This document shows positions 3,738 through 56,635 of a DNA stretch of 64,000 bases, piece by piece. The position numbers were made by a program, and so were the translations under genes. The stretch is from assembly GCA_016707525.1 (NCBI GenBank), contig JADJHP010000003.1, positions 76,677 through 140,676 of the forward strand, in the 5' to 3' direction. The stretch's first letter is position 1. Each line of letters starts with the position of its first letter. Source of the DNA: Ignavibacteriota bacterium (lineage in GTDB: Bacteria; Bacteroidota; Ignavibacteria; UBA10030; UBA6906). The notes beneath the pieces are model-generated. The model was given only the letters and a program-made list of their open reading frames with translations, did not search any database and was not told where the DNA came from.

Positions 3738-3790
3738 GATCGGTCTCCATAAACTCGTTTGAAGTTCCCATGACAATGCAATGCAGATAT

Positions 3791-3814
3791 CAGATATCTG
3801 AATTCAGATATCTG
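3791..3814. repeat. Perfect 24-nt AT-rich palindrome CAGATATCTGAATTCAGATATCTG between the hemY stop and the hemB start; a partial extra copy (GCAGATAT) sits just upstream
   Basis: Read directly from the sequence. GC content is far below the local average, and the palindrome lies 3 nt after the hemY stop codon (3817-3819). Confidence 0.8.
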
Positions 3815-3816
3815 AA

Positions 3817-6161: not shown

Positions 6162-6164
6162 GCT

Positions 6165-7220: not shown

Positions 7221-7253
7221 ATGTTCCCGTTATTCACAAGGGCACAGCGTTTT

Positions 7254-8051: not shown

Positions 8052-8982
8052 GCCGGATCGCTTCCAGGATAGCGCGGGCACCGAGGGCCAGCAGATCATC
8101 CGCGAGCGAGCGCCCGAGGGCATCCGCTTCTGACGGTGCTGCGTGTTGAGACCCCCGCACCACCTGTTTCCCGTCGAGCGAGCCGACCATCGCGTCCATG
8201 ATGAGCTCGCCCTTTTCGATCCGGGCATAGGTGCCGATGGGGACCTGGCAGCCACCTTCGAGTGCACGGAGCAACGCCCGCTCCGCGGTCGTCGCCTGGC
8301 TGGTCACTTCATGATGCAGACATTTCACTACTTTCCGGATCTTCCGGTCTTTGGACCGGACCTCGATCCCGAGCGCCCCCTGCCCTACGGCAGGCAGCAT
8401 CACGTGCGGATCGAGCGTCTCCCCGATCCGGTCCGCCCACCCCAACCGCACCACACCAGCGCGGGCGAGGATCATGCCGCCCCAGGTGGAGCCGGTGAGT
8501 TTTTGATACCGTGTATTCAGATTGCCACGGAGATCGATGACCGAGAGGTCCGGGCGCCGATGCAGGAGCTGTGATGTGCGGCGCAGGCTGCCCGTCGCGA
8601 TCACGGCACCGGCCGGCTGGCCCGTCAGCGTCCGTTCTTTGGCATTCGGGCGCGGAAGGAACACGTCGCGCACATCCTCGCGCTCGGTGACCGCGGCGAG
8701 CACCAGCCCATCGGGCAGGTGTGTGGGCAGGTCCTTCAGGCTGTGCACCGCGAGATCGATGGCACCATCGAGGAGGGCACGTTCGATCTCCCGCGTGAAG
8801 AGGCCCTTGTCGCCGATGCGCGACAGGGGTGCGTCCAGGATCCGGTCGCCGGTCGTCTTGATGATGACGATCTCGACGCTGGTGGACGGGAATGTCTGCG
8901 TGAGGCGGTCGCGTACCCAGTGGGCTTGCCAGAGCGCCAGGGCGCTCCCGCGGCTGCCGATGCGGATGATGTCAGTCGCCAT
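8032..8982 (-). CDS. hemC: Hydroxymethylbilane synthase (porphobilinogen deaminase)
   Basis: Starts MATDIIRIGSRGSALALWQAHWV, the PBGD family N-terminus. Confidence 0.9.
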   Translation of the reverse strand: MATDIIRIGSRGSALALWQAHWVRDRLTQTFPSTSVEIVIIKTTGDRILDAPLSRIGDKGLFTREIERALLDGAIDLAVHSLKDLPTHLPDGLVLAAVTEREDVRDVFLPRPNAKERTLTGQPAGAVIATGSLRRTSQLLHRRPDLSVIDLRGNLNTRYQKLTGSTWGGMILARAGVVRLGWADRIGETLDPHVMLPAVGQGALGIEVRSKDRKIRKVVKCLHHEVTSQATTAERALLRALEGGCQVPIGTYARIEKGELIMDAMVGSLDGKQVVRGSQHAAPSEADALGRSLADDLLALGARAILEAIRHEANNP

Positions 8983-10255
8983 GTGATTCGTTCTTTGTCA
9001 GGCCGAACAATTCACGGAGCACTTTGATGCGCTGCAGCGTATCAGGCCCGTGGCTTCCGTTCTCCGCCCCTTGCTTCAGCGTCGTCAACGGTTGGTGCAG
9101 GATCTTGTTCACGATGCGTTTCGTGAGCATCTCCACCAGCTCGCGGTCCTCAGGCGTGAACCTGTTGATATTCTTGTGCACTTCCTCGGCACGGATCGCT
9201 TCGAGGGTGGTACGGAAATCCTGGATCGTGGGTGCGACCTGCAGCGACTTGTGCCACCGGAGGAACTCCGCCATCTCCTCGCGCACGATGCGCGTGACCG
9301 CGGGCATTTCCGCCGTCCGCTTCTGCAGGTTCCGGTCCACGATCGCGCTGAGCGCGTCGATGTCGTACAGGAACACGTTCTCGATGCGACGTGCGGCCGG
9401 GTCGACGTTGCGCGGCACGCCGATGTCAATGATGAAGAGCGGGTTGTTCCCGCGGCGGCGCATCACCTTCTGGACATCCTCCGGCCCGACGACGTAGGTC
9501 GGGCTGTTCACGGACGTGATGACGATGTCCGCGACGCGGAGCCCCTCCGCCATCTGCTCGTAGTCCACCACTTCGCCGCCGAGTTCGGCGACAAGCGCCT
9601 CGGCGCGGGCACGGGTCCTGTTAGCAACACGGACGGTCCCGATCCCCTTCCCTACCATGTGCTTCAGTGTCAGCTCGCCCGTCTCGCCGGCACCGATCAG
9701 CAGGACCGACTTCCGGGAGAGGTCGGCGAAGATCTTGCTGGCAAGTTCCACGGCCGCATAGCTCACCGACACCGCGCCCTCGCAGATCGACGTCTCGGTG
9801 CGGACCCGTTTCCCCACATGCAGGCTTGCCTGCATGAGCCGGTTCATCACGGGGCCCAGGGCGCCGGCATCGCGCGCGAGCTGGAACGCTTCCTTGACCT
9901 GATTCAGGATCTGGATATCGCCGATGACCATCGAATCGACGCCCGCCGCCACCTTGTAGAGGTGGTTCAGCACGGCACCGTCACGCCATGCGGTGAAATG
10001 CTCGGGGCGCACGGATCCATCGGCATGCTTGAGGTCGAGGAGCGTGGCGATCACATCGGTGTGATGGAGAGAGGCGTCGCGCGGGACACCATACAGCTCC
10101 GTGCGGTTGCAGGTGGAGACCAGCATGCACTCGTCAAAGAACCGTTCCTTCAACAGCGTCACAGCCTGCCGGGCTTCGTCGGTCGAGAGCCACATCCGTT
10201 CACGCACTTCCACCGCGGCGGTGTGGTGACTGATACCGATGGAAAAGAGATTCAT
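8972..10255 (-). CDS. hemA: Glutamyl-tRNA reductase
   Basis: MNLFSIGISHHTAAVEVRERM..., the active-site region VSTCNRTELYGV, and an NADP-binding Rossmann segment LLIGAGETG. Confidence 0.9.
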   Translation of the reverse strand: MNLFSIGISHHTAAVEVRERMWLSTDEARQAVTLLKERFFDECMLVSTCNRTELYGVPRDASLHHTDVIATLLDLKHADGSVRPEHFTAWRDGAVLNHLYKVAAGVDSMVIGDIQILNQVKEAFQLARDAGALGPVMNRLMQASLHVGKRVRTETSICEGAVSVSYAAVELASKIFADLSRKSVLLIGAGETGELTLKHMVGKGIGTVRVANRTRARAEALVAELGGEVVDYEQMAEGLRVADIVITSVNSPTYVVGPEDVQKVMRRRGNNPLFIIDIGVPRNVDPAARRIENVFLYDIDALSAIVDRNLQKRTAEMPAVTRIVREEMAEFLRWHKSLQVAPTIQDFRTTLEAIRAEEVHKNINRFTPEDRELVEMLTKRIVNKILHQPLTTLKQGAENGSHGPDTLQRIKVLRELFGLTKNESHGD

Positions 10256-10273: not shown

Positions 10274-11104
10274 CTAGTGAAACGTGTGAAAGCTGCTGAG
10301 AAAGAGATTGATCACCATCATGGAGATGAACACGAACAGGAATCCGACCAGCGACACGATCATCGTCTTGCGCCCCTGCCACCCTCCGCGGCGCTTTGCC
10401 GTCAGGGCCAGGGCATACAGGCACCAGATCGCGATCGTACCGATGAGTTTCGGATCGAAATACGAGATATCCTTGAAGACGATCGGCAGCCAGACCACCC
10501 CGACAAGGATGGCGATGGTCAGCATCACGAACCCGAAAGCCTCCGAACGGTGGCTCATCGTCTCCAGGGTCTCCAGGTTCGGGAGCCGGCTGTAGACGAT
10601 GCCGAAACGGCTGGACTTGATCTCGTGATACAGCATCAGATACAACAGGCCGTAGACCGCGGAGATGGAGAGTGCGGTGTACCCGAGGATCGCTGCGGAC
10701 ACATGGAAGCCGAGCAGCCGGCTGTGCAGGTAGTCCGGGATCACCAGGAGGTCCCGGATGAACAACGACGAGATCGTCTGGAAGATGAACGCCAGCGTCA
10801 GGACGAACAACCCTGTATTGTGCACCCGCGTACGGAATTCGAGGTACAGGTACGCACCGCCGATGGAGGCGGCGAGCAGCGTCATGATCTCGAACAAGGA
10901 CGTGATCGGCGGATGGTCGAAGAGCACCGTCCTCGCACCCAGGAACACCAGGTGGAGGACGATGATCACGATCAGCGCCGGATGCTTGATCCTCTCAAGC
11001 ACGGGTGCACTCCTGAAGAACGTGATGCCATACACGGCCACGAGTGCAGCGTACAGCACCGGCAGGAGCACCTGCAGGGCATCAACGATAAGGCGGACAT
11101 CCAT
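10274..11104 (-). CDS. hemX: Cytochrome c assembly (CcsA-like) membrane protein, HemX-like, positioned before hemA
   Basis: Polytopic membrane protein of 276 aa, resembling the hemX position in Bacillus-type hemAXCDBL operons. Confidence 0.65.
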   Translation of the reverse strand: MDVRLIVDALQVLLPVLYAALVAVYGITFFRSAPVLERIKHPALIVIIVLHLVFLGARTVLFDHPPITSLFEIMTLLAASIGGAYLYLEFRTRVHNTGLFVLTLAFIFQTISSLFIRDLLVIPDYLHSRLLGFHVSAAILGYTALSISAVYGLLYLMLYHEIKSSRFGIVYSRLPNLETLETMSHRSEAFGFVMLTIAILVGVVWLPIVFKDISYFDPKLIGTIAIWCLYALALTAKRRGGWQGRKTMIVSLVGFLFVFISMMVINLFLSSFHTFH

Positions 11105-20039: not shown

Positions 20040-22793
20040 CTACCGCGAGAGGAGAAGCGTTCCGTACTTCTCAACGATACTCCGGACCTCCTCGAGGCGG
20101 ATCGGCTTGCTCAGGAAATCATCCATGCCGGATGCCATGCACGCCTCACGGTCGTTCGCCATGACATTGGCTGTCAGGGCGACGATCTGGGGTCTGTCAT
20201 CCCCGGTGTAGCGCTCCCGGATGATCCGGGTGGCGCGGAGGCCGTCCATGACGGGCATCTGGACGTCCATGAAGATCAGGTCATACTGTTGCCGTTCAAG
20301 AGCATCGATGGCTTCCTGGCCGTCGGCGGCCACATCCGCACGATACCCCATCTTGCGCAGGATCGCGAGGGCCAGGGCCTGATTCACGGGATTGTCCTCC
20401 GCGACCAGGATCCGCAGCGGCAGCCGCAGCGCCAGCGTTTTGTCCAGGACCGTGCTGCCCACCGCACGTATCTGCTGGGGGGGGCCGCCGGGTGCCAGAC
20501 GGATGGCCTTCAGGATCTGCGCAGGCTTCACCGGCTTGAGGGTTTGACCGGCGAAGAGTCCGACAACGTCCTCGCGCACCATGCCCGCTCCCGTAGCCAT
20601 GAGGACCATGGGCAACGAAGCTCCGGTCGCGAGGGTGCGGACATGGCGTGCAAACTCGATCCCGGACATCTGAGGCATGACCGCATCAACCAGGAGAACG
20701 TCCACATGCCCCCCGGCGGCCAGCGTAGCCAGAGCCCGGGCAGGATCCGTGAATGCACGGACGCGCATCCCTTCCGATTCGCACACCCGTTGCAGCAACG
20801 CTGTCACGGTCGTATTGTCATCCACGATCATGATATCGGTCGGACCAGCAGGCCTCTTCCCGTCAGCCTTCTCTTTCGGCGCCACCGCGGCGACCGGAAC
20901 GCACAGAGCGAAGAAGAATGTCGCACCCAGCCCCTCCGTGCTTTCTACCCAGATGCGCCCCTCCATCAGTTCCACCAGGCGCTTGGATATCGCCAGGCCG
21001 AGCCCCGTGCCACCATATTTACGATTCACGGAACGGTCGGCCTGCGAAAACGGCTGGAACAACCGGTGCCTCGCGGACTCGGCGATGCCAATGCCTGTAT
21101 CCTTCACGCTGACGAGGAGTTCAACCCGATCACCATCGGTCAACCGGCCCACGGCATTGACCGCAACCTCCCCCTGTTGCGTGAACTTGACGGCATTGCC
21201 GACGAGATTCGCGAGTACCTGACGGACACGGGAGGCATCGCCCATCAGGACCTCGGGAACCGTTGGGTCCACGGACCCGATCAATTCGATGTTCTTTTCT
21301 GCGGCTTTCCCTGCGAAGAGATCGAGCACCTCTTCGATGCAGGAGTGAAGAGAGAAGGGCTCCCGCTCAAGGTCGATCCGTCCCGATTCCACTTTCGAGA
21401 AATCCAGGATCTCATTCAGGATCCCCAGGAGCGATTCCCCGCTGTTCCGGATGGTCTCGGCATATTCGCGCTGCTCTTCGGTGAGCCCGGTCTCAAGGAG
21501 CAGACTGGTCATGCCGATGACGCCATTCATCGGCGTGCGGATCTCATGGCTCATGGCAGCGAGAAAACTCGCCTTCGCTCTCCCTGCTTCCTCCGCCTCG
21601 TCTTTCGCAAGGCGCAGCTGTTCCGCATAGAGCCGGAGTTCCTCTTCGGACTGCTTTCGCTCCGTGATGTCCTGCATCGTCGAGCGAATACCGATCACGT
21701 TCCCTGCACTGTCCAGCTGTACACGGTCCTCGACAAGGACCGGCACTTCCGAACCATTGCTCCTGCGGAACACCCGCTCATACGGCTCCTTGGGAGCGGC
21801 CTCACCGTTCATCTTGCGGGCGACCGCCTTGCGGGAGGTCTCCGGGTCGGCAAGAAAATCCCACACCGGACGGCCGAGCATCTCTTCTTCGGAATATCCG
21901 AGCATGGCCTGCTCGGTCCGGTTCACACGCGTGAAGATACCGTTCCTGTCGATCTCATGGTACCCCACCGGTGCATCGTCGTACAGGTCGCGGAACCTCT
22001 GTTCGCTTGCCCGCACGGCTTCCTCCGCCTCCCGGTCTTCGGTGATGTCCCGGAAGATACCGAAGGCCCCGGCAAGGACGCCGCGCCCGTCGAATTGAGG
22101 TGTTGCGGTAACGAGGAGTGTCCGGTGCTTGCTGTCCGGACGGCGGATCATGATGTTGTACGTGCTGCGGATGCCGGTCCCGCGGATGCGGGTCTGTTCC
22201 CGGATGGACGCGAACACCTCCGGCGTGGTGAACTCACCGATGCACCGCCCCTTCAACGTCCCCTCTTCTACACCGAAGATCGTCTCCGCTGCCGGATTCA
22301 CGAACGTGAACCGCTCGTCGAGATCGACGAAGACGATCCCCTCCCCGGTATTCTCGATCAGCGTGCGGTACAGCTCTTCGCTGGCCCGGAGTTTCTGTTC
22401 CGCGTGATGGCGGTACAGTGCCATCTCCACCGTCGTAGCAAGCTCGCGTTCATCGAACGGCTTCAGGACGTAGCCGAACGGACCGATCTGCTTCGCCCGA
22501 TGGAGGGTCTCCTTATCCGAATACGACGTCACAAAGATGACCGGCACATCGACCTCGGCCCGGATCTTCTCCGCGGCGGTGATGCCGTCGTACTCACCGT
22601 CCATCCCGATATCCATCAGCAACAGGTCGGGCCGATGCTCTATCGCTGCATGATAGGCATCCACCCCGCTGCCGACCACAGCAACGACTGAGCAGCCAAG
22701 CGCGAGCATGCGCTTCCGCAGATCGGCAGCGACGATGCGTTCGTCGTCGGCAATGATGACCCGGGCATTCTCGGGTGTCATGAGACCATTCAT
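20040..22793 (-). CDS. Hybrid sensor histidine kinase / response regulator (REC - PAS/PAC x2-3 - HisKA - HATPase_c - REC - REC)
   Basis: N-terminal receiver ARVIIADDERIVAADL...LLLMDIGM, H-box SFLAAMSHEIRTPMNG, a G-box GGTGLGLAI, and two C-terminal receivers. Confidence 0.85.
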   Translation of the reverse strand: MNGLMTPENARVIIADDERIVAADLRKRMLALGCSVVAVVGSGVDAYHAAIEHRPDLLLMDIGMDGEYDGITAAEKIRAEVDVPVIFVTSYSDKETLHRAKQIGPFGYVLKPFDERELATTVEMALYRHHAEQKLRASEELYRTLIENTGEGIVFVDLDERFTFVNPAAETIFGVEEGTLKGRCIGEFTTPEVFASIREQTRIRGTGIRSTYNIMIRRPDSKHRTLLVTATPQFDGRGVLAGAFGIFRDITEDREAEEAVRASEQRFRDLYDDAPVGYHEIDRNGIFTRVNRTEQAMLGYSEEEMLGRPVWDFLADPETSRKAVARKMNGEAAPKEPYERVFRRSNGSEVPVLVEDRVQLDSAGNVIGIRSTMQDITERKQSEEELRLYAEQLRLAKDEAEEAGRAKASFLAAMSHEIRTPMNGVIGMTSLLLETGLTEEQREYAETIRNSGESLLGILNEILDFSKVESGRIDLEREPFSLHSCIEEVLDLFAGKAAEKNIELIGSVDPTVPEVLMGDASRVRQVLANLVGNAVKFTQQGEVAVNAVGRLTDGDRVELLVSVKDTGIGIAESARHRLFQPFSQADRSVNRKYGGTGLGLAISKRLVELMEGRIWVESTEGLGATFFFALCVPVAAVAPKEKADGKRPAGPTDIMIVDDNTTVTALLQRVCESEGMRVRAFTDPARALATLAAGGHVDVLLVDAVMPQMSGIEFARHVRTLATGASLPMVLMATGAGMVREDVVGLFAGQTLKPVKPAQILKAIRLAPGGPPQQIRAVGSTVLDKTLALRLPLRILVAEDNPVNQALALAILRKMGYRADVAADGQEAIDALERQQYDLIFMDVQMPVMDGLRATRIIRERYTGDDRPQIVALTANVMANDREACMASGMDDFLSKPIRLEEVRSIVEKYGTLLLSR

Positions 22794-22932: not shown

Positions 22933-23790
22933 CTATTGAAGTTTCTTCAGCAGGTCGAGGCGGAGAGATTCGTTCTTACCGTATCCGAGGATGCCATACA
23001 CGTCGGAACCCCGGACCACGATGTCCAGCGGACCGTGGTGGGGATCGATCAGGTGCGTCGTTGCAGGTCCGGCCGGAGAACCCTTGCCCCCCGCCGTCCT
23101 GACGAACGATGCACGAATACGCTCCGCGGCGTCGGGAGACGCGGTGCGGATGAGGAAGGCCTGTGCACCCTCCCCGCTTCCGTAGCGGGCCAGGTACACA
23201 CGGGAGAGAAATCCGTACCCGAGAAAATCGCTCGCAATATACTGCTCCGACCGGGGTATGCGTCCGCCCGAAGGCAGCGCAGCGAATTCCGGAGGGAGCC
23301 CGCGCGGCGACCCCAACACAACATCAAAGGACCGCGCGAGCAGCAGGAGATCATCGCGTCCGACAGCAGGAGGCGACGACAACTTGAGATACCAGCGGCC
23401 GAAAACAACGATCATCATCCCGGCATCCGCGCATCCTTCGTTGCCCACCTCGACGGCAGCGTTGTCAGGCGAACGTTCTTGCGAGTACATGCCATACGCA
23501 TCAGATACTCCGGCATGGCGATACAGCTCCGCACGCACCTCCTCACCTGACGGCGTGCGGTAGGTCGCACATTGCAGGCGCTCAAAACCATAGATCACAA
23601 AAAGATCCGCGGCACCGTCGATGTACTCCCAGAGATCGTCCGGGCCGTAGACAGCCGTGTCGGCCTGCACAGTCCACCCCCCGGGGACAGGGAAGACGAA
23701 CGCGTCACGGTCGTCCTCGCTCCTTGCAGGGATCGCACCCGAGAGAGCGATGAGGGCGGGGAGGACGAGCGCACGGACCGCCCGCGTCAT
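22933..23790 (-). CDS. Hypothetical secreted protein (signal peptide), no recognisable family
   Basis: MTRAVRALVLPALIALSGAIPARSEDD... Its start overlaps the upstream AKR gene by 4 nt. Confidence 0.5.
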   Translation of the reverse strand: MTRAVRALVLPALIALSGAIPARSEDDRDAFVFPVPGGWTVQADTAVYGPDDLWEYIDGAADLFVIYGFERLQCATYRTPSGEEVRAELYRHAGVSDAYGMYSQERSPDNAAVEVGNEGCADAGMMIVVFGRWYLKLSSPPAVGRDDLLLLARSFDVVLGSPRGLPPEFAALPSGGRIPRSEQYIASDFLGYGFLSRVYLARYGSGEGAQAFLIRTASPDAAERIRASFVRTAGGKGSPAGPATTHLIDPHHGPLDIVVRGSDVYGILGYGKNESLRLDLLKKLQ

Positions 23791-24974
23791 GACAGGAACT
23801 CTTCCGGGATCTGGCCGACACGCCTCACGTCAGCGATCCGGTCGCGGACCGGGAATCCCTTCACGCAGGAAGCGGAGCAGGTCTCACAATCGTGACACGG
23901 GTCGTTGCCACCGTCATGCTGCTTCACCACCGCATGGGCCATGGCAAGGTCGCGATAGCCATAGGCGTACATGAAGGCACGCATATATTCCGGGATCGAC
24001 AGGCTGCGCGGACAGCCGGCCACACAGTGCTCACACCCCTGGCAGTACAATCCACCTTCCAGCCGCCCTGCCACGAGCGAGTCCTGTTCCTCTTCGGTCA
24101 TCGTCAGATCCTGATTCACACTGGCGTTCTCGTCCAGTTGATCGAAGGAGGTGATACCGGGGATCGTGGTCGCGACATTCGGATCCTGCAGCACGAATTT
24201 CAGCGCGGCCTTGCAGTTGATGGGCTTCGTCTTCTCTTTGTCGAGGAACCCCCCGGCCATCGTCTTCATCCCGACGATGCCCACGCCCGCCTGCGCAGCA
24301 CGTGCGATCGCAGCCTTCACGGAGGGATAGTGGTCCTGTTTGAAATTCACGGCGGTCAGGACGACGTCGTACACGCCGCAGTCGACGGCGGCATCGATCA
24401 CATCGGGTTCGTTCTTGTGCGTGGAAACCCCGAGGAAACGCGTGTAGCCCTTATCCTTCGCCTGCTGCAAGGCATCCAGCATGGCCGGCGCACAGGTGTC
24501 GTCCTTCGACGAGGTCGAATGCAGATACAGAATGTCCACATGATCCAACTTGAGCCGTTGCAGGCTCACCTCGACGAGGCTGAGCCACTTCCGTACCGCA
24601 GCCGTGGAGTCGCCAGTTTCAGACGGGACCTTCGTCGAGATCACGTACGAGTCGCGGGGCACATTGGCAAGGAACTTGCCCAGCATCACTTCGTTCATTC
24701 CCCGCTGGTACCCATGGGCCGTGTCCAGGTGCAGGAACCCCTTGTCGAGCGCGGCACGGACGAGACCGGGATTGTCCGAACGCATGACACCCATGCTCAC
24801 GACGGGAAGCATCAGCCCCGTCCGCCCGAGCTTCCGTGTATGCTTCACGGCCACGATGGGCGCCGGTGCGGATGATCCCCCGTTCTCCTGCGCATGCAGC
24901 GACCCGGTCAGGACCGCGCCGGAAGCAGCAACGAGTGAGGTCTTGAGAAAGCCGCGGCGGTCGAACTGTTCCAT
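23787..24974 (-). CDS. Aldo/keto reductase with a C-terminal 4Fe-4S cluster-binding domain; Tat signal peptide
   Basis: Twin-arginine motif DRRGFLKTSLVAASGA, an AKR TIM-barrel core, and a C-terminal CQGCEHCVAGCP...CHDCETCSASC. Confidence 0.75.
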   Translation of the reverse strand: MEQFDRRGFLKTSLVAASGAVLTGSLHAQENGGSSAPAPIVAVKHTRKLGRTGLMLPVVSMGVMRSDNPGLVRAALDKGFLHLDTAHGYQRGMNEVMLGKFLANVPRDSYVISTKVPSETGDSTAAVRKWLSLVEVSLQRLKLDHVDILYLHSTSSKDDTCAPAMLDALQQAKDKGYTRFLGVSTHKNEPDVIDAAVDCGVYDVVLTAVNFKQDHYPSVKAAIARAAQAGVGIVGMKTMAGGFLDKEKTKPINCKAALKFVLQDPNVATTIPGITSFDQLDENASVNQDLTMTEEEQDSLVAGRLEGGLYCQGCEHCVAGCPRSLSIPEYMRAFMYAYGYRDLAMAHAVVKQHDGGNDPCHDCETCSASCVKGFPVRDRIADVRRVGQIPEEFLS

Positions 24975-25000
24975 GGAGCCTCTCGAAGTGATGGGCGTGC

Positions 25001-26704
25001 CTAGTGATGATCCCTGCGGAGCGCAGTCGGGATATAGAGATGGCGCTTGATCTTCTGTGTCGGTGTTTTCTGGAACGGTTCCGCCTGCTCGATGATCCGG
25101 TGGATGCGCGCATACAACGGCACCCTGTCGTTGATCTCCTTCTGCAGGTCGGCAAGGAGTGCGTTCGCCTTCTGACGGATATCGGATTCACTGAGCGATT
25201 GCAGTGCCTTCTGCAGGCGCTCGTAGTCGAGATGCACCAACGCCACGAGTCGCTTCTGGTGCTCATACACCACCGATTCGCGGACGTGCTCGAACTCGTT
25301 GATAACGGCTTCGATCTCTTCGGGATAGATGTTCTTCCCGCTCGGGCCCAGGATCATGTTCTTGGAACGGCCCTTGATGAAAATGAAACCATCCGCATCG
25401 ATCACGCCAAGGTCGCCCGTGCTCAACCACCCGTCGTCGCTCAGGACCTGCCGGGTCTTCTCTTCATCTCGGTAGTATCCCTTCATCACCGTGGGGCCCT
25501 TCACCATGATCTCGCCCTCCCCCGTCCGGGGATTGGGATCCTGGATACGGATCGTCGTCCCACGCAGTGCGGGGCCGGTCGAGCGCAACCGCGTCCGTTC
25601 GGGACCGGTGCCCGCGATCAGGGGTGCGGTTTCCGTAAGGCCGTAACCGATCGCATACGGGAACTTCGCTTCGCGCAGGAACGACTCCACGTCGGGTGCC
25701 AGCGGCGCGCCATCGATGCAGAACAACCGCAGCTCACCACCGAAGGTCCGCAGGAGTTTCTTGCCGGCGATCCGGTGGAGTGCCTTGCGCAGCACCGGCA
25801 CCCCTATCGCCTTTCTCAAGAGCGCACTCTTCATCAGCTCCGGCTGGATCTTCGCCTTGTAGATCTTTTCGATGATCAGCGGTACGGACAACATGACCGT
25901 GGGCCGAACCCGTGTGAGCGCCGGGAGAAGGACCGGGGCGGTGGGCGGTTTGTCCATATAGTACACACTGGACCCCCTCACGATCGGCAGGATCATGCCA
26001 AGGGTGCTCTCATACGTATGGGGCAAGGGGAGGATCGACAGCATGCGATCGGTCTCGTCCAGCGACACGATCGTCATTGTTGCTTCAACATCCGACAGCA
26101 GGTTGCCATGCGTGAGCATCACGCCCTTGGAGTGGCCCGTCGTCCCCGACGTATACACGATCGACGCCAGGTCATCGGCAACCGGGAGGCGTTCGGGCAC
26201 GGCGTACACCGTGGACGGTGCCGCGTGCACATCCAGGATCGGTGTTCCATCGTCAGGATCGGTCTCTCCGGCGATGACCTGCTGCCAATTCTCGAGGAGC
26301 ACGATCGCCCCCGTTTCCGACGGGGCAAGCTCGCCGATCTTCGTGAGAAGGCGGCGCGACACGAACACCGCTTTGATCTCGGCGTGACGCAGGATCCGGG
26401 CGATGTCCGACGAATGGAAATCCGGGAGAATAGGCACCGCAACCGCACCGGACGCGGTGATGCCAAAGTACGCCGCCACCCAGTTCGGCATATTCTCGGA
26501 CAGTAGTGCGACGCGGTCACCGAAGCCGATGCCCGCTCCCTTCAGGAATGCACCCACCTGCTGTGCACGCTGCCAGAGCACATCATAGGTCATAGAGTCG
26601 CCGTCGACCAAGGCGACCGACGGACGGGAGCCGAAGCGTTGCGCGGACTGCTCGAGCGCACGACGCAGTGAACGGGGGAATGATGACATGGGTCCTGCCT
26701 GCAA
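25001..26704 (-). CDS. Long-chain fatty acid--CoA ligase (AMP-dependent synthetase/ligase)
   Basis: AMP-binding motifs IVYTSGTTGHSKGV and YGLTET. Confidence 0.8.
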   Translation of the reverse strand: MQAGPMSSFPRSLRRALEQSAQRFGSRPSVALVDGDSMTYDVLWQRAQQVGAFLKGAGIGFGDRVALLSENMPNWVAAYFGITASGAVAVPILPDFHSSDIARILRHAEIKAVFVSRRLLTKIGELAPSETGAIVLLENWQQVIAGETDPDDGTPILDVHAAPSTVYAVPERLPVADDLASIVYTSGTTGHSKGVMLTHGNLLSDVEATMTIVSLDETDRMLSILPLPHTYESTLGMILPIVRGSSVYYMDKPPTAPVLLPALTRVRPTVMLSVPLIIEKIYKAKIQPELMKSALLRKAIGVPVLRKALHRIAGKKLLRTFGGELRLFCIDGAPLAPDVESFLREAKFPYAIGYGLTETAPLIAGTGPERTRLRSTGPALRGTTIRIQDPNPRTGEGEIMVKGPTVMKGYYRDEEKTRQVLSDDGWLSTGDLGVIDADGFIFIKGRSKNMILGPSGKNIYPEEIEAVINEFEHVRESVVYEHQKRLVALVHLDYERLQKALQSLSESDIRQKANALLADLQKEINDRVPLYARIHRIIEQAEPFQKTPTQKIKRHLYIPTALRRDHH

Positions 26705-26812
26705 CGTCTGAGAGGGGAGATTTGGAAGTACGCCGTAAAATACACAATCCCCCGGATACTCACAAGCACCGGGGGATCGGGTGGAACGAGAGAACTGCCT
26801 GAGGGGCGGAAT

Positions 26813-27601
26813 TCAGATCGTATCGAGCGCCCGGCGGAACGCCGCGGTCCACACACGGGTGCCACCCGGCGAAGGATCGCTCTCCAGCTGCCGGAGAAGT
26901 GCCGAACCCACGATCACGCCGTCGGTGTCGCGGGCAAAGGTCACCGCATCCTCAGGCCGCGAGATCCCGAATCCCACGAGCATCGGGTTGCGCGTGACAT
27001 GCGCACGCACCGCACGGACGTTGTCGAGCGCCGAACCGGCCACGGCCCCGCCGGTCACGCCGGTGGTGGACACGCAGTACACGAATCCCGACGACGCAGC
27101 ATCGATCGCACGCACGCGCGCCGGAGGCGTCGTGGGCGTCGCGAGCAAGATCCCGGCCAATCCCGCGGATGTCACCGCCGGCGCATACGAGCTCCACTCC
27201 TCCAGGGGCAGCTCGGGAAGGATCAGGCCGTCAACCCCGGCAGCAGCCGCATCGACGAAGAATCTGTCCACTCCATAGCGCATGATCGGATTGAGATATC
27301 CCATGAGCACCAGTGGGACACCGGACCGCTGCCTGATCCGTGCAACGAGTTGCAGGATCCACGGCAGGGTCACGCCGTTCGCGATCGCCGTGCCGGACGC
27401 CTTCTGGATGACCGGACCATCGGCGAGGGGGTCCGAGAACGGAACCCCGATCTCCACGATGTCCGCCCCGCCATCCTCAAGTGCGCACACGAGGTCTGCC
27501 GTTGCATCCAGTGTCGGATACCCGGCGGTGAGGAACATGGCAAGCGACCGCCTGCCCTTCGTTGCATTGCCGCTCAACCGTTCTTGGAGTTTCATCGTCA
27601 T
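26813..27601 (-). CDS. trpA: Tryptophan synthase alpha chain
   Basis: [47 protein letters not shown]. Confidence 0.9.
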
Positions 27602-28800
27602 AGGTTCGCGTATGTTGTCATATCCTTGTCACCCCGCCCCGACACGTTCACCAGGATGAGGGGTGAGCCGGTGGTGCGCGGCGCGAGCTTTTCCAGCCAT
27701 GCAAGAGCATGCGCAGACTCGAGCGCGGGGATGATCCCTTCGAGGCGGGAAAGCAGTTTCGCCGCGGCAAGGGCTTCCTGATCTGTCACGGCAACATACT
27801 CCACCCGCCCGGCATCCTTCAGCGCGCTGTGCTCGGGGCCGACGCCGGGATAGTCCAATCCCGCGGAGATCGAGTGGGCAAGTTGCACCTGTCCGTCATG
27901 GTCCTGCAGCAGATAGCTGAGGGAACCGTGCAGGACACCGGGAGCTCCCAGCGAGAGCGTCGCGGCATGCTGCCCGGACGTGAGGCCGTGCCCGGCAGCT
28001 TCGACGCCGATCATGCGTGCCCTCGTGCCCAGGAACGGCTCGAAGAGCCCGATGGCGTTGCTCCCTCCCCCGACGCACGCCAGCAGGATATCCGGATCGC
28101 GTCCTTCAGCGGCACGCACCTGCTGCATTGCCTCTTCACCGATCACGCTCTGGAAATCGCGAACGATGGCGGGGTACGGATGAGGGCCAACGACCGATCC
28201 GATGATATAGAATGTATCGCGGACGTTGGTCACCCAATCCCGGATCGCTTCGCTCGTCGCATCCTTGAGCGTGCGCGTCCCGGAATGGACCGGCACCACG
28301 CGCGCACCGAGCATTTCCATCCTGCGCACATTCAACTGCTGACGCTCGATGTCCTCGTCGCCCATGTACACATCGCAGGCAAGTCCCATCCGCGCGGCCA
28401 CCGTGGCCGTTGCCACCCCATGCTGCCCGGCACCCGTCTCGGCAATGATCCGCTTCTTCCCCGATCGTTTTGCCAGAAGGATCTGACCGATGGTGTTATT
28501 GATCTTGTGTGCCCCGGTATGGCAGAGATCCTCCCGCTTCAGGTAGATCTTCACCTTTCCGTAGTGTGCGGCAAGGCGGTCGGCGCGTGTGATCGGCGTG
28601 GGCCGCCCGGCAAAGGTCGTCAGGAGTTCGCGCAGCTCTGCCGTGAATGCCGGGTCCTTCCGCGCGTCCTGATACAACGCCTCGAGTTCGTCCAGCGCGG
28701 GAATGAGGGTCTCGGGCACATAGCGGCCACCGTACGCTCCGAAATAGCCCCGTGCATCGGGCATACCTCCGGGAGCAAGTGCAGCAGGAGCGTGTGTCAT
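27598..28800 (-). CDS. trpB: Tryptophan synthase beta chain
   Basis: [15 protein letters not shown] and PLP-binding HTGAHKINN. The start overlaps the DAHP synthase stop, and the stop overlaps the trpA start. Confidence 0.9.
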
Positions 28801-29828
28801 GTGGTGCTTCCTTCGTTCAGTGTTCTTCCAACCACCGGCGCGAGCCGGCGGATATCATCCATCAGCGCAGCAAAGCGGGATGGTTTCAAGGACTGTGCGC
28901 CATCCGAAAGTGCGGCAGCAGGATCCGGATGGACCTCGATCATCAGCCCATCCGCCCCCGCCGCGATCGCGGCCATGCTCATCGCCGGAACAGCTTCCCA
29001 GATCCCGACACCGTGACTCGGATCCACGATCACAGGCAGGTGGGTGAGCCGCTTGAGGACGGGGATCGCATTCAGATCCAGCGTGTTCCGTGTCGCCGTT
29101 TCGAACGTCCGGATCCCCCGCTCGCACAGGATGATCTGCAGGTTGCCGCGGCTCGCGATGTACTCTGCCGCCATCAGCAGTTCCTCGATCGTCGCGGCGA
29201 TGCCGCGTTTGAGCAGCACCGGTATGCGGAGTTCGCCGACGGCCTCCAGGAGACTGAAATTGCTCATGTTCCGTGCGCCGATCTGCAGCACGTCCGCCAC
29301 TTCCGCCACGGCGGGGAGGGTGCCCGTATCCTTCACTTCCGTCACGATCGCAAGCCCCGTCTTCTCGCGCGCCTCGCGGAGAAGGACCAATCCTTCTTCC
29401 TTCATGCCCTGAAAACTATACGGCGACGAACGTGGTTTGAATGCGCCGCCCCGCAAGAACTGTGCACCTGCCGACTTCACGTTTCGCGCAACGGTAACGA
29501 TCTGCTCCCGGCTCTCCACCGAGCAGGGCCCGGCCATCACCGCAAGTTCGGGCCCTCCAATGCTCGCTGTCCCGACCTTGATCACGCTGCTCTCCGGCCT
29601 CGCCTCACGACCGACGAGCTTGTACGGCTTGGAAACCGGTATCGCCCGTTCCACACCGGGCAGGATCGTGAACACATCCGCGGCGATCGCGCCGTGATTA
29701 CCGGTGATGCCGATGGCCGTCCGCTCCGCCCCGGGTATCTCGTGGGCCCGGAATCCGAGATCGCCGATCTTCAGCATCACTTCCCGGACCTGGTCCGGCG
29801 TCGCATCCTGTCGCATCAGGACGAGCAT
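28797..29828 (-). CDS. 3-deoxy-7-phosphoheptulonate (DAHP) synthase, class I-beta with an N-terminal regulatory domain, embedded in the trp operon
   Basis: N-terminal ACT/FL-like domain [21 protein letters not shown], followed by a KDO8P/DAHP synthase barrel ([30 protein letters not shown]). Confidence 0.85.
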
Positions 29829-29831
29829 CTG

Positions 29832-30476
29832 TCATCTCCCTTGTGCTTCACGTGAACGATCCCATGCCAACGCCTTGAGTGCCGCATGGACGAACGCCCT
29901 CACCTTCTCATGATCCTTGATACCCGGCGCCACTTCCACGCCGCTGCTCACGTCCACACCCATGGGACGTGCTTGTCTGATCGCTTCCGCAACATTCGCC
30001 GGCGAGAGTCCGCCGCCCAGGATCACGGGCCCATGCCCGGCAGCCGCCCGTGCGATGCTCCAATCGAACACCTGGCCGGTACCGCCATGCACACCGGCAA
30101 CGAAGGTGTCCAGCACGTGGGCATCCACGCGATATGTTCCCACGCTGGCCGGATCGAAATCGGGTCCCACACGGTGTGCCTTCAGGACGCGGACCGGCAG
30201 GCCTTCCGTCTCCGCCGGCGACTCCTCCCCATGCAATTGTACCGCCTTCACCCCGCTCCTCCGGATCGCATCGAGGATCGCGGCGCGTGGCGCATTGACG
30301 AACACGCCGACCGTCACGATATCATTCGGGATGGACCGGACGATGTCCGCAACGGCATCAGGGCTGATGCACCGCTTACTCGAAGGCACGAAAATGAAGC
30401 CCAGCATGTCGGCACCCGCATCGAGCGCGCACAGGGCATCGTCACGCCTGGTGATCCCGCAGATCTTCACCCTCAT
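29832..30476 (-). CDS. trpF: Phosphoribosylanthranilate isomerase
   Basis: MRVKICGITRRDDALCALDAGADMLGFIF. Confidence 0.85.
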   Translation of the reverse strand: MRVKICGITRRDDALCALDAGADMLGFIFVPSSKRCISPDAVADIVRSIPNDIVTVGVFVNAPRAAILDAIRRSGVKAVQLHGEESPAETEGLPVRVLKAHRVGPDFDPASVGTYRVDAHVLDTFVAGVHGGTGQVFDWSIARAAAGHGPVILGGGLSPANVAEAIRQARPMGVDVSSGVEVAPGIKDHEKVRAFVHAALKALAWDRSREAQGR

Positions 30477-31261
30477 GCGCGGACCCCGGCAAGCACGTCC
30501 CGGAGTGCCTCACCGGGATCGGGAGCCCGCATGAACCCTTCGCCGATCAGGAATGCATCGATGTTGTGGGACCGCAGCATGCGTATATCTGCAGCGGACT
30601 GGATACCTGACTCGCTCACGCAGACCACATCGGAACCGATCAGGCCGCGCAGTCGCACCGACGTCTGCATATCCGTCGCAAATGTCGCAAGGTCACGATT
30701 GTTGATCCCGACCACGGGGAATCTTCCGCCCTCCAGCGCACCCACTTCCTCTTCATTGTGCACTTCCACGAGGACGCCGAGGCCGAGTTCATCGGCAAGG
30801 GCTTTGAGCTCATTCAGCAGGATGCGGTCCAGGGCGGCGACGATGAGCAGGACCGCATCGGCCTGGTACGCTCGCGCTTCATGAAGTTGATAGGGGTCAA
30901 GGATGAAATCCTTGCGGAGGACAGGCACCGCATGTCCTGCACGAGCAAGCGCCATGTAGTCCAGATGGCCCTGGAAGAACGGAACATCCGTGAGCACGGA
31001 GAGCGCCGCGGCGCCCGCCGCTACATACGACCGTGCGATCGCCGGTACGTCCATATCAGCGCGGATGACGCCCCGGGAGGGCGATGCTGCCTTGATCTCC
31101 GCGATGACCGCGGGGGAACGTTGGCGCAGGGCAAGTTCGAATGGCCGGCGGGGCACGTGATAGCCGGGCATATCCATCAGTGCGGCAAGCGGGGCCCTCT
31201 GCTTACGGGCGTCCAGGTCCTCCTGTGTGCGCCGGAGGATCGCGTCGAGATAGGTGCTCAT
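30473..31261 (-). CDS. trpC: Indole-3-glycerol phosphate synthase
   Basis: AVIAEIKAASPSRGVI...GINNRDL. Confidence 0.9.
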   Translation of the reverse strand: MSTYLDAILRRTQEDLDARKQRAPLAALMDMPGYHVPRRPFELALRQRSPAVIAEIKAASPSRGVIRADMDVPAIARSYVAAGAAALSVLTDVPFFQGHLDYMALARAGHAVPVLRKDFILDPYQLHEARAYQADAVLLIVAALDRILLNELKALADELGLGVLVEVHNEEEVGALEGGRFPVVGINNRDLATFATDMQTSVRLRGLIGSDVVCVSESGIQSAADIRMLRSHNIDAFLIGEGFMRAPDPGEALRDVLAGVRA

Positions 31262-32271
31262 GCTCTGTTCGTGAACTCCACCAGTGCCTTGAGGGTTGCC
31301 AGCGCGCGGCCCGAGTCGATCGCTTCCGCCGCGAGGCGTGTCCCGGCCGTCAGGTCGGCGGCCTTGCCTGCCACAAAGATCCCCATCCCTGCGTTGGCGA
31401 GAACGATATCACGACCCGGAACCGGTTCGGCCTGGAGGATGCTGAGCGCAATACGGGCATTTGTTTCAGGATCCCCACCCTTCACGGCGTCGTGCGGCGC
31501 TGTCGCAAGCCCGAAATCGGAAGCTTCGACGATATACCTGCGCACAGGCCGATCCCCTCCCACCTCGTGGACCGACGTCGGCCGTGCGAGGCTCACTTCA
31601 TCCATCCCGTCATCGCTGTGGATCACGCACGCTTTGTCCGTGTCCAGCACGTGCAGCGCACCGGCGAGCCGCCGGGCCACATCATGATGATAGGTCCCGA
31701 GCACCTGGCGCCGCACGCTGGCAGGGTTGGTGATCGGACCGAGCATATTGAAGATGGTCCTGACGCCAAGCTCCTGACGCGCTTTCGCCGCGAACTTCAT
31801 CGCGGGATGGAACAACGGAGCGAACAGGAACCCGATCCCGACGGTATTCACGCACGCCTCCACGCGGTCCGGTGCCAGTTGTGTCTTCACGCCGAGCGCA
31901 GCGAGCACATCGGCGCTGCCGCTGCGGCTCGACACGGAGCGGTTGCCGTGCTTCGCAACGGTCACGCCCGCGCCGGCAGCCACGAGCGCGGCCACCGTGG
32001 AGATATTGAACGTATCGCGTCCATCCCCACCGGTACCGCACATATCGATGGCGTCGCCATCGTCGGTGGTGATCCGGACCGCATGGGCACGCATCGTTCG
32101 CGCGAACCCGACGACCTCGGATTCGCTCTCCCCTTTTGCGCGGAGTGCGATGAGCAATCCGGCGATCTGCGCATCCGTAGCGGTGCCGCTCATGATCCTC
32201 TCCAGGGCATCCGCTGCCTCGTCGATCGACAGGTCCTGCTTCTCCAGACACTTCTCGATATAGTGCTTCAT
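31258..32271 (-). CDS. trpD: Anthranilate phosphoribosyltransferase
   Basis: AQIAGLLIALRAKGES...CGTGGDG. Confidence 0.9.
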   Translation of the reverse strand: MKHYIEKCLEKQDLSIDEAADALERIMSGTATDAQIAGLLIALRAKGESESEVVGFARTMRAHAVRITTDDGDAIDMCGTGGDGRDTFNISTVAALVAAGAGVTVAKHGNRSVSSRSGSADVLAALGVKTQLAPDRVEACVNTVGIGFLFAPLFHPAMKFAAKARQELGVRTIFNMLGPITNPASVRRQVLGTYHHDVARRLAGALHVLDTDKACVIHSDDGMDEVSLARPTSVHEVGGDRPVRRYIVEASDFGLATAPHDAVKGGDPETNARIALSILQAEPVPGRDIVLANAGMGIFVAGKAADLTAGTRLAAEAIDSGRALATLKALVEFTNRA

Positions 32272-32837
32272 GACAGCCTCTCCACCCAGTTCCTGAGAAT
32301 TTGCATGCCCTCTGTGGTCAGGATCGATTCGGGGTGGAATTGCACGCCTTCCACCGGCAACGTCCTGTGACGCACGCCCATGATCACGCCATCCTCGGTC
32401 TCCGCGGTGATCTCCAGAGCATCAGGCAGCGAGGAACGCTCGACGACCAACGAATGGTAGCGCGTCGCATCGAAGGGATCCGACACGCCCCGGTACAGCG
32501 ACGTTCCGTGATGCCGCACGCGCGATGTCCGTCCGTGCATCAGCGACGGCGCGTGGATGACGGATCCGCCGAAGGCGGCGCCGATCGCCTGATGGCCGAG
32601 GCAGACGCCGAAGAGCGGGAACGAGGTACTACAGTGGCGGATGACGTCAAGGGTGACGCCGGCATCCTCCGGTCGGCCGGGGCCGGGGGACAACAGGATC
32701 CCGTCCGGCGCCAATGTTGTGATCTCGTCGACGGTCACGGCATCGTTGCGGCGCACCAAGAGATCGGTGCGGAAGGTGCCGAGTGCCTGCACGAGATTGA
32801 ACGTGAAGGAATCATAGTTGTCGATCACGAGGATCAT
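32268..32837 (-). CDS. trpG: Anthranilate synthase component II (glutamine amidotransferase)
   Basis: MILVIDNYDSFTFNLVQ...GVCLGHQAI, class I GATase. Confidence 0.85.
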   Translation of the reverse strand: MILVIDNYDSFTFNLVQALGTFRTDLLVRRNDAVTVDEITTLAPDGILLSPGPGRPEDAGVTLDVIRHCSTSFPLFGVCLGHQAIGAAFGGSVIHAPSLMHGRTSRVRHHGTSLYRGVSDPFDATRYHSLVVERSSLPDALEITAETEDGVIMGVRHRTLPVEGVQFHPESILTTEGMQILRNWVERLS

Positions 32838-34324
32838 TGTGCACCTTCCTCCTGCCCGTCGGGCGCGGCGAGCCCGCGTGAGGCGAGACGTATCGCCTCC
32901 ATGAGCACCCGCGCCTTGTTGACCGTTTCGTCGTATTCATTCGACGGCACGGAGTCGGCAACGATCCCCGCGCCCGCCTGCAGCTTCAACGTTTGTCCAT
33001 GCGCGAACACCGTGCGTATCGCGATACAGGTATCCATCGTGCCGTCCATGCCGAAATACCCCACGGCGCCTGCGTACGCTCCACGCGGAAAGGGTTCGAG
33101 GTCAGCGATGATCTCCATCGCACGCACCTTCGGGGCACCCGAGACCGTCCCTGCAGGGAAGCACGATTCAAAGATGCCCACCGCGTCGATGTCCGGACGG
33201 ATCCGGCCGCGCACTTCCGAAACGATGTGCATCACATGCGAATAGCGGTCCACGCGCTTGAAGACCGGCACTTCCACGGAACCGTACTCGGAGACCCGGC
33301 CAACGTCGTTGCGCCCGAGGTCCACAAGCATCACATGCTCGGCAAGTTCCTTGGGATCGGCGAGAAGGTCCAGTTCAAGACGTTTGTCGTCGGCTTCATC
33401 CACACCGCGGCGCCGGGTACCGGCGATCGGCAGAAGCTCCACTGTGCCGCCGTGTGCCTGGATGAGCATTTCCGGCGAAGAGCCGGCGAGTTTGGTAGCG
33501 CCGAAATCCAGGAAGAAAAGGTACGGGGATGGATTGATGATGCGCAGGGAACGATAGACGGCAAAGAGATCGCCGGTGAACGTACTGCGTGTCCTTCGTG
33601 AGAGCACCACCTGAAAGATATCGCCTTCGGTGATGTGTTCTTTCGCACGAAGCACGGCCTGCTCGAACCCCGCGCGGTCCGGTTCACCCGCTCCATCCAT
33701 CGCACAACTGAACGGCGTGGCCGGTGCGGTCACTCTCCGCAGGCGGAGTTCCAGCGCAGACAGGGCGGCCTTCCCCGATTCGTACTGGTCTTCCAGTGGC
33801 GCCGCCGGGTCGATGAAGACATTGTGCATGAGCGTCATGACCTGCCGGTGATGGTCGAACTGCACGACCGAGCCGAACAGGCCGAGGATCGCATCGGGCT
33901 CCTCACCCGCTGCGGGCGTGATAGGTATCCGTTCGATGTGCCTGACGCAGTTGTACCCGATGTATCCCACAAGTCCGCCAAGCAGCCCGTGGGGCTCCTG
34001 CACCGGTGCGATCCTGTGCGGTGCGAGGATACTGCGGATGACGGAGAACAGCGGGCCCTGCACCTCCTCCGTTCCCCTGGCATCGCGCACGGTCACCGAT
34101 CCGTTGCGGGCTTCGAGGATCACCCGCGGACGCGTGCCGATGAACGAAAAGCGTCCGATCTTTTCGTTCGGTTCGACGCTCTCCAGGATGAAGGACGGCA
34201 CCCCCTCTTCACGGAGCGTGAGGTAGGTCAGGACCGGGGTCAAGGTATCCGCCACCAGGGTCCGCACGAGCGGGATCACGGTGTACGAAGCTGCCAGTTG
34301 CCTGAATGTTGCGAACGGTATCAT
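32834..34324 (-). CDS. trpE: Anthranilate synthase component I
   Basis: ORF trimmed to MIPFATFRQLAASYTVIPLV, with the ATG at 34324 preceded by GGGAGG. Chorismate-binding domain present. Confidence 0.9.
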   Translation of the reverse strand: MIPFATFRQLAASYTVIPLVRTLVADTLTPVLTYLTLREEGVPSFILESVEPNEKIGRFSFIGTRPRVILEARNGSVTVRDARGTEEVQGPLFSVIRSILAPHRIAPVQEPHGLLGGLVGYIGYNCVRHIERIPITPAAGEEPDAILGLFGSVVQFDHHRQVMTLMHNVFIDPAAPLEDQYESGKAALSALELRLRRVTAPATPFSCAMDGAGEPDRAGFEQAVLRAKEHITEGDIFQVVLSRRTRSTFTGDLFAVYRSLRIINPSPYLFFLDFGATKLAGSSPEMLIQAHGGTVELLPIAGTRRRGVDEADDKRLELDLLADPKELAEHVMLVDLGRNDVGRVSEYGSVEVPVFKRVDRYSHVMHIVSEVRGRIRPDIDAVGIFESCFPAGTVSGAPKVRAMEIIADLEPFPRGAYAGAVGYFGMDGTMDTCIAIRTVFAHGQTLKLQAGAGIVADSVPSNEYDETVNKARVLMEAIRLASRGLAAPDGQEEGAQ

Positions 34325-34335
34325 GGACCTCCCAT

Positions 34336-34373
34336 AAAAACGAAAAAACCCTTCCTGGCTGTCAGGAAGGGTT
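34336..34373 (-). terminator. Intrinsic terminator / trp attenuator hairpin upstream of trpE
   Basis: On the minus strand: AACCCTTCCTG-acagc-CAGGAAGGGTT followed by TTTTTCGTTTTT. Confidence 0.75.
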
Positions 34374-34400
34374 GTGCATGGCACAACGATGGAAAAGACA

Positions 34401-34484
34401 CTAACCTCCTGCAGGTTGCGGGCTCATCATCGTGCGCCACCACCAGGACGACAGGTTTGTGCGATATGCGTTGACGGATTTCAT
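34401..34484 (-). CDS. trpL: trp leader peptide (27 codons, three consecutive Trp codons)
   Basis: Minus-strand translation gives MKSVNAYRTNLSSWWWRTMMSPQPAGG*, ending 27 nt before the terminator hairpin. Confidence 0.7.
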   Translation of the reverse strand: MKSVNAYRTNLSSWWWRTMMSPQPAGG

Positions 34485-34492
34485 GATGGTGC

Positions 34493-34521
34493 AATATACG
34501 TGCAGAGGGGTGTCGTGTCAA
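34493..34521 (-). promoter_or_regulatory. Sigma70-like promoter of the trp operon (TTGACA-17 nt-TATATT)
   Basis: On the minus strand: cTTGACAcgacacccctctgcacgTATATTgcaccatcATG. The -10 element ends 8 nt before the leader ATG, so the leader transcript may be leaderless. Confidence 0.6.
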
Positions 34522-34542
34522 GCGAAAAGTGGCAACGCGGTG

Positions 34543-38943
<4,401 letters not shown>

Positions 38944-56557: not shown

Positions 56558-56629
56558 TCCGCGATAGCTCAATGGTAGAGCATGCGGCTGTTAACCGCAG
56601 GGTTGCAGGTTCGAGTCCTGCTCGCGGAG
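56558..56629 (+). tRNA. tRNA-Asn (anticodon GTT)
   Basis: 72 nt. Acceptor stem TCCGCGA/TCGCGGA, D-arm AGCTCAATGGTAGAGC, anticodon loop CTGTTAA, T-arm GGTTCGAGTCC. CCA is not encoded. Confidence 0.85.
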
Positions 56630-56635
56630 CACAAG

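Follow-up and report, generated by a model that had tools for sequence, protein, structure and literature searches.

A class Iβ DAHP synthase gene within an Ignavibacteriota trp operon, downstream of a Trp-codon leader and an intrinsic terminator

Organization of the trp operon

We analyzed a 64,000-nucleotide stretch of the genome of an Ignavibacteriota bacterium (assembly GCA_016707525.1, contig JADJHP010000003.1, positions 76,677 to 140,676 of the forward strand), which is referred to here as the window and in which positions are counted from the first nucleotide. [quoted passage not shown] Nine open reading frames (ORFs) are arranged head to tail on the minus strand from 34484 to 26813, eight of which were named using Pfam and NCBIfam models. 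The order is leader, trpE-G-D-C-F, DAHP synthase, trpB-A. Promoters and terminators were sought on the minus strand from 24800 to 34700 (10 kb). The features of the operon, in the direction of transcription, are:

34493-34521, minus strand: strong σ70-like promoter, TTGACA-17 nt-TATATT (11/12 positions); the sole promoter-like site in the scan
34401-34484, minus strand: trp leader ORF of 27 codons, MKSVNAYRTNLSSWWWRTMMSPQPAGG followed by a stop codon, with three Trp codons (UGG UGG UGG) at 34445-34437
34404-34412, minus strand: candidate antiterminator strand GCAGGAGGU, tentative, abutting the leader stop codon
34337-34373, minus strand: intrinsic terminator with an 11-bp stem (AACCCUUCCUG/CAGGAAGGGUU), loop ACAGC and a U-run; the sole terminator-like site in the scan
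32834-34324, minus strand: trpE (anthranilate synthase I), 496 aa; Pfam Chorismate_bind and Anth_synt_I_N, and public gene calls
32268-32837, minus strand: trpG; Pfam GATase, E=4e-57
31258-32271, minus strand: trpD; Pfam Glycos_transf_3 and its N-terminal domain
30473-31261, minus strand: trpC; Pfam IGPS, E=5e-81
29832-30476, minus strand: trpF; Pfam PRAI, and NCBIfam NF002298 (225 vs. a cut-off of 215)
28797-29828, minus strand: class Iβ DAHP synthase, 343 aa, ATG start; Pfam, NCBIfam, phmmer and AlphaFold
27598-28800, minus strand: trpB; TIGR00263, 602 bits vs. a cut-off of 392
26813-27601, minus strand: trpA; Pfam Trp_syntA, E=2e-74

A preliminary description of this DNA had proposed an ORF at 28797-29828, placed inside the trp operon with trpF and trpB as its neighbors and overlapping the gene on either side. 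The ORF is present exactly as given, on the minus strand and 343 aa in length, and the Pfam and NCBIfam assignments of the adjacent genes confirm its position in what is a tightly spaced operon. The overlap exists on the trpB side, where the stop codon of the DAHP synthase gene and the trpB start share ATGA at 28800-28797. It does not exist on the trpF side, where the trpF stop codon TGA (29834-29832) is followed by CAG and then by the ATG of the DAHP synthase gene (29828), leaving a gap of 3 nt. This junction is the sole exception in the operon, as all of the remaining ones are 4-nt ATGA or GTGA overlaps. No internal promoter or terminator signals were found within the operon in the minus-strand scan.

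The trpE start was placed at ATG 34324, as in the public gene calls of identical contigs, and not at GTG 34384 of the mechanical ORF list. The choice matters because the terminator sits in the interval 34325-34384. Tryptophan is scarce in the encoded enzymes (no residues in TrpE, TrpD and TrpC, one each in TrpG and the DAHP synthase, two each in TrpF and TrpB, and three in TrpA), and this low content would allow the operon to be translated under Trp starvation.

Identity and domain structure of the DAHP synthase

The ORF matches Pfam DAHP_synth_1 (E=8e-81) and scores 489.7 bits against NF006421 (3-deoxy-7-phosphoheptulonate synthase; cut-off 335) and 387.1 bits against TIGR01361 (cut-off 267.75). 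We assigned family membership where the profile score exceeds both the curated cut-off and the score of the sister family, 3-deoxy-D-manno-octulosonate 8-phosphate (KDO8P) synthase, and the score of the ORF lies above both. Using phmmer, residues 1-337 align without gaps to the DAHP synthase of Thermotoga maritima (1RZM/3PG9; E=1e-103). An AlphaFold model with a predicted local distance difference test score (pLDDT) of 80.6 has 1VR6/1RZM as its top PDB matches, at 50% identity over 337 columns. Residues C102, H272, E298 and D309, along with K131-P-R133, are invariant in 16 homologues and fall within the gap-free alignment to 1RZM. From the T. maritima structure, we take the first four to be the metal ligands and KPR(S/T) to be the phosphoenolpyruvate (PEP)-binding motif. 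By sequence, the ORF is a class Iβ DAHP synthase, and its catalytic activity is predicted.

The enzyme has two domains. The FL regulatory domain comprises residues 1-67 (nt 29828-29628), matched by Pfam DAHP_snth_FXD (PF18152; 55.6 bits vs. a cut-off of 27, E=4.6e-15), and the TIM-barrel catalytic domain begins at about residue 70. In the AlphaFold model, the N-terminal domain is a βαββαβ unit, with strands at residues 2-5, 27-31, 38-42 and 59-63 and helices at 11-23 and 51-54. Both the assignment as a DAHP synthase and the ACT/FL-like N-terminal domain had been proposed in the preliminary description, and these analyses bear them out.

Within the FL domain, the clade to which this enzyme belongs carries the motif H29-E-I31-P-G…AIGITGN, the counterpart of which in T. 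maritima is H-I-S-K-G…VIGIIGD. His29 is retained, whereas position 31 is Ile across the whole clade and Ser in T. maritima. In the T. maritima enzyme, His29 and Ser31 are the Tyr-contacting residues, and Ser31 is said, from the work of Cross and Parker, to touch the hydroxyl group of Tyr. The effector of the FL domain may differ from that of the T. maritima enzyme because Ile31 replaces Ser31. We predict that, in addition, some aromatic end product probably exerts allosteric feedback through the FL domain. The feedback inhibition proposed in the preliminary description is thus plausible.

Leader region and predicted attenuation

The leader ATG lies 8 nt past the -10 box TATATT and is not preceded by a Shine-Dalgarno sequence (34484-34498, minus strand). 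In most relatives (L005-L057), a TATATT box is found 5-15 nt ahead of the leader ATG. The short distance to the -10 box and the missing Shine-Dalgarno sequence make a leaderless or near-leaderless mRNA the probable template for the trp leader peptide.

The regions upstream of trpE were compared across 17 loci (16 related loci and the window). A short leader ORF with two adjacent Trp codons (WW) occurs in 15 of these, vs. 2.4% of shuffles, and a run of three (WWW) occurs in 12, vs. 0.06% of shuffles. Outside the Trp run, the leader peptide is unconserved among relatives, as would be expected if the Trp codons alone mattered. The terminator hairpin itself spans 34373-34347 and is followed by the U-run. 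A terminator-like hairpin (CCCUUCC…GGAAGGG type, with a T-run) is visible upstream of trpE in every relative. An automated finder scored it in 14 of the 17 loci, with comparable spacing to the Trp run, and certain of its base pairs are preserved across loci by compensatory changes on both sides. The Trp-codon leader of the preliminary description holds up: three Trp codons precede an intrinsic terminator, a pattern that recurs across relatives. A riboswitch, a T-box and a known leader family were considered for the region 5' of trpE and rejected, since the Rfam search of the leader returned no family, either at the gathering threshold or with the limit relaxed to E≤10. Rfam includes a tryptophan-operon leader family, the model of which derives from sequences of enterobacteria.

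Among alternative pairings for the 5' arm of the terminator, the best duplex is that with the candidate strand GCAGGAGGU (-9.7 kcal/mol, z = -1.8 vs. shuffles). This strand abuts the leader stop codon, and a terminating ribosome would therefore cover it. In 12 of the 14 loci scored, one end of the corresponding strand falls no more than about 12 nt from the leader stop, but the strand is not statistically distinct from shuffles. Attenuation is strongly indicated by the comparative anatomy of these leaders, with a switching mechanism of the kind that we propose below.

Distribution and descent

One genome per GTDB species was scanned; 80 loci were returned, onto which the Trp proteins of the window were mapped. 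The order trpG-D-C-F-DAHP synthase-B-A, as far as contigs reach, is found in about 30 species-representative metagenome-assembled genomes (MAGs), which are labelled Ignavibacteriota, Ignavibacteria, Bacteroidota or 'Chlorobi'. The DAHP synthases of the operon-bearing genomes range in identity to that of the window from 94% (JAUQWO01) to 56% (Ignavibacterium sp. CP070637). In the 80 loci, the homologues encoded by Myxococcota, Acidobacteriota, Nitrospirota, Chloroflexota and Firmicutes (56-65% identity) never occur beside trp genes. Embedding of this gene in the trp operon had been called uncommon, which is accurate across bacteria and inaccurate within this lineage, where the layout is the norm.

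In a neighbor-joining tree, all 32 DAHP synthase sequences with a trp context form one clade. Pairwise distances between the DAHP synthases follow the distances of both TrpB and TrpD (r=0.92-0.93, with a Mantel p≈0.001), as closely as TrpB follows TrpD (0.93). The simplest reading of these sequence comparisons is that one old insertion was followed by vertical inheritance with the operon. A recent horizontal acquisition of the DAHP synthase gene was rejected: its GC content (63.3%) and that of its third codon positions (GC3, 76%) equal those of the adjoining genes, and its distances track those of TrpB and TrpD. The spacer between trpF and the DAHP synthase gene is longer in some relatives, and no recognizable regulatory elements were found in these longer spacers, of which that of L022 is N-masked.

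Two genomes outside this group encode pairs of FL-domain DAHP synthases. An Anaerolineales MAG has two genes in tandem (L044, 2886-5029; 59-60% identity to the query), and an Anaeromyxobacter MAG has two genes about 3 kb apart (L056, 3869-9014; 60-65% identity). These pairs are paralogous isozymes of the FL-domain subclass, located outside trp operons.

Proposed regulation and alternatives

We observed the identity and domain architecture of the enzyme, the order of the genes, the leader ORF and the terminator, and conservation across the lineage; from these we infer co-transcription, attenuation, a physiological role and allostery as follows. The whole operon, including the DAHP synthase gene, would be transcribed from the single promoter ahead of the leader; as this promoter lies upstream of the leader, the DAHP synthase would be subject to attenuation. 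During a shortage of charged tRNA-Trp, ribosomes would stall at the run of three UGG codons in the leader ORF, transcription would continue past the terminator ahead of trpE, and the entire operon, with the DAHP synthase, would be expressed. When Trp is plentiful, most transcripts would end at the terminator. As a result, carbon entry into the common aromatic pathway would rise along with flux into the Trp branch. We consider it likely that the enzyme is a long-resident, operonic DAHP synthase that is transcribed from the leader promoter under ribosome-mediated Trp attenuation.

It is hardly credible that the ORF is instead a KDO8P synthase or another PEP aldolase (NeuB-like or of the BagF/FevY type), unrelated to aromatic supply. 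Weak secondary matches to the KDO8P_synth, NeuB and BagF_FevY models would be the basis for such an assignment, but the DAHP synthase models score far over their cut-offs while the others do not. The score of the ORF as a KDO8P synthase, the identity that the preliminary description had named as the one to exclude, is 122.8 bits vs. a cut-off of 314. Its motif is KPRS and not of the KDO8P synthase type, and KDO8P synthases match the model at just 22-30% identity in the PDB comparison, vs. 50% for solved DAHP synthase structures. An amino-DAHP synthase of the BagF/FevY type was rejected at 353 bits vs. a cut-off of 700, and a NeuB-like identity, a weak secondary match only, was rejected on curated cut-offs. 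Several observations do weigh against parts of the proposal made above. Alternative pairings in the leader reach -5 to -10 kcal/mol, no better than shuffles across the 14 loci scored, and minimum free energy folds retain the terminator in every case, even with stalled-ribosome masks. RNAalifold, applied to 15 leaders, likewise recovered only the terminator and no antiterminator. An antiterminator that is not demonstrable, in a leader that matches no Rfam family, is what would be seen if the leader ORF and hairpin were fortuitous and the operon were controlled by a protein repressor or not at all. We regard this as very improbable, as the Trp runs stand at about equal distance from the terminator in 15 of the 17 diverged loci, vs. 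2.4% of shuffles, and the otherwise unconserved leader peptides fit selection on Trp codons only. Also to be counted on the opposing side is the bootstrap value of the single trp-context clade, which is only 52% (64% with the short-contig sister sequence L035). The same holds for the FL motif: the type HEIPG…AIGITGN (H-x-[IM]-P-G) occurs in Myxococcota and Acidobacteriota enzymes encoded outside trp operons. It was therefore rejected as an operon-specific signature and is no marker of a Trp-specific sensor.

The remaining points on that side concern the role of the enzyme. The dedicated Trp-branch isozyme of the preliminary description, and with it the assumed extra supply for Trp, presupposes a second DAHP synthase elsewhere in the genome. 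The ORFs scanned in the 64-kb window included no second DAHP synthase or KDO8P synthase-like gene, and no related 17-kb Ignavibacteriota locus included a second DAHP synthase. In three relatives, the operon is eroded and the DAHP synthase gene is kept. Two of these have only trpG and the DAHP synthase gene (L027, 7360-9032; L028, 4997-6652) and the third has trpG, trpF and the DAHP synthase gene (L031, 6623-9032), followed in each case by gltX/glnS (two Glu/Gln-tRNA synthetase genes). A plain TTGACA-17-TATATT promoter, without a Trp leader, precedes trpG in L027 and L028, and a tRNA-like sequence and a masked stretch lie upstream of the remnant in L031. Because the gene is retained where other trp genes have left the locus, these cases suggest a role wider than the Trp branch. 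The enzyme could thus be the main or sole DAHP synthase, located in the trp operon for historical reasons and not a Trp-dedicated isozyme. Attenuator read-through or a weak internal promoter would then yield sufficient enzyme for Phe, Tyr, quinones and folate, and Trp would act as a transcriptional proxy for the whole aromatic pathway. The enzyme of this type in T. maritima is reportedly a general DAHP synthase inhibited by Tyr and Phe, in keeping with such a role. We view this possibility as real but doubtful. With the only entry enzyme under Trp attenuation, abundant Trp would starve the synthesis of Phe and Tyr, and published operonic cases have paralogues, with three in Simkania (PMC3937554) and three isozymes in Geobacter (PMC2700814).

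Two further-reaching proposals are, taken jointly, unlikely: that the FL domain has been retuned to Trp or a Trp-branch metabolite (anthranilate) and does not respond to Tyr or Phe, or alternatively that the enzyme is the sole DAHP synthase. If the FL domain were retuned, a Thermotoga-type DAHP synthase would be under Trp attenuation and Trp allostery together; to our knowledge, Trp specificity has not been described for FL/ACT-domain DAHP synthases. If the enzyme were the sole DAHP synthase, Trp availability alone would gate transcription of the entry to the whole aromatic pathway. The enzyme would be a convenient natural test of a change in effector specificity among FL/ACT-domain DAHP synthases.

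Comparison with known systems

The closest counterpart in structure and sequence, the DAHP synthase of T. maritima (TM0343; 1RZM, 1VR6, 3PG9), shares the two-domain architecture, aligns gap-free over 337 residues at 50% identity, and has the same metal ligands, PEP-binding residues and His29. It differs in having Ser31 where the clade described here has Ile31. The T. maritima gene is not known to lie in a trp operon. The Trp-sensitive AroH of Escherichia coli, a member of the TrpR regulon, follows the same logic, in that an entry enzyme is co-regulated with Trp synthesis. However, AroH belongs to class Iα, has another allosteric apparatus, lies apart from the trp operon and is controlled through TrpR repression, not attenuation. 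The leader described here resembles E. coli trpL in having a short ORF with tandem Trp codons and then an intrinsic terminator before trpE. Unlike classical attenuators, it has no Rfam leader match, its ATG is 8 nt past the -10 box, and there is no evident antiterminator.

Other DAHP synthase genes have been described in or near trp operons. In Simkania negevensis, the operon trpR/Aa/Ab/B/D/C/Eb/Ea/aroA ends with an aroA of class Iβ, which is likewise joined to the trp genes by tight translational packing (PMC3937554). This is the closest precedent at the level of the whole system. There, aroA is the last gene and control is by a TrpR repressor encoded in the operon, whereas the present gene is flanked by trpF and trpB, behind a Trp-codon leader and terminator. 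Contigs from the Sargasso Sea have aroG/aroH DAHP synthase genes 3-20 bp past trpA (PMC2395257), and in Bacteroides a fusion of a class Iβ enzyme with chorismate mutase is found within a pheA-hisH-aroA-tyrA cluster (PMC1173090). Ribosome-mediated trp attenuation is also reported for Corynebacterium and Streptomyces in work cited in PMC4833913. Operonic DAHP synthase isozymes and trp attenuation are both already established, and current understanding is not overturned. Distinct from the known cases are the internal position of the gene, the predicted control by a Trp leader and not by TrpR, the demonstrated presence of an FL domain and the conservation across a lineage. The locus provides a clean, lineage-wide case (about 30 species-level genomes) in which the shikimate-pathway entry enzyme would be wired into the end-product control of one branch. 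It also shows a Trp-codon leader and terminator, a probable attenuator, to be conserved in a little-studied lineage of the FCB (Fibrobacteres-Chlorobi-Bacteroidetes) group.

Other genes in the window

Downstream of trpA, the minus strand has three genes (22933-26704), for an acyl-CoA ligase (AMP-binding), a fusion of an aldo-keto reductase with a 4Fe-4S dicluster domain, and a DUF6599 protein. The gap between trpA and these genes is about 110-125 nt, with no terminator-like site found in it, and they may be co-transcribed with the trp operon; the layout downstream of trpA was compared only among the near-identical contigs L001-L004. On either side of the trp region, the minus strand encodes a very large hybrid sensor histidine kinase (at 34543-38943 and at 20040-22793). 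One kinase, of 1466 aa, has CHASE, PAS, HisKA and two receiver domains, and the other, of 917 aa, has receiver, PAS and HisKA domains. The stop codon of the kinase gene at 34543-38943 is about 20 nt upstream of the -35 box of the trp promoter.

We identified a cluster for haem biosynthesis on the minus strand at 1381-10255, which is broken by two plus-strand ORFs without Pfam matches (5280-8072) and adjoined by a gene for a cytochrome c assembly protein (10274-11104). Its genes are:

8972-10255, minus strand: glutamyl-tRNA reductase
8032-8982, minus strand: porphobilinogen deaminase
3817-5199, minus strand: amine-oxidase-type flavoprotein, which may be HemY/HemG-like
2745-3776, minus strand: 5-aminolevulinate (ALA) dehydratase
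1381-2748, minus strand: class-III aminotransferase, probably HemL

Between 58000 and 62000, the GC content drops from about 62% to 52-57%. This region includes a gene for a DUF4143/AAA_14 ATPase (60444-61658), and a GH38-like gene, apparently split into two ORFs, is found at 61666-63003 and 62934-63962. The low-GC region may be foreign or in decay. Near it lies a gene for tRNA-Asn(GTT) (56558-56630). Elsewhere in the window, a type IX secretion system (T9SS) sorting domain is encoded, consistent with placement in the FCB group.

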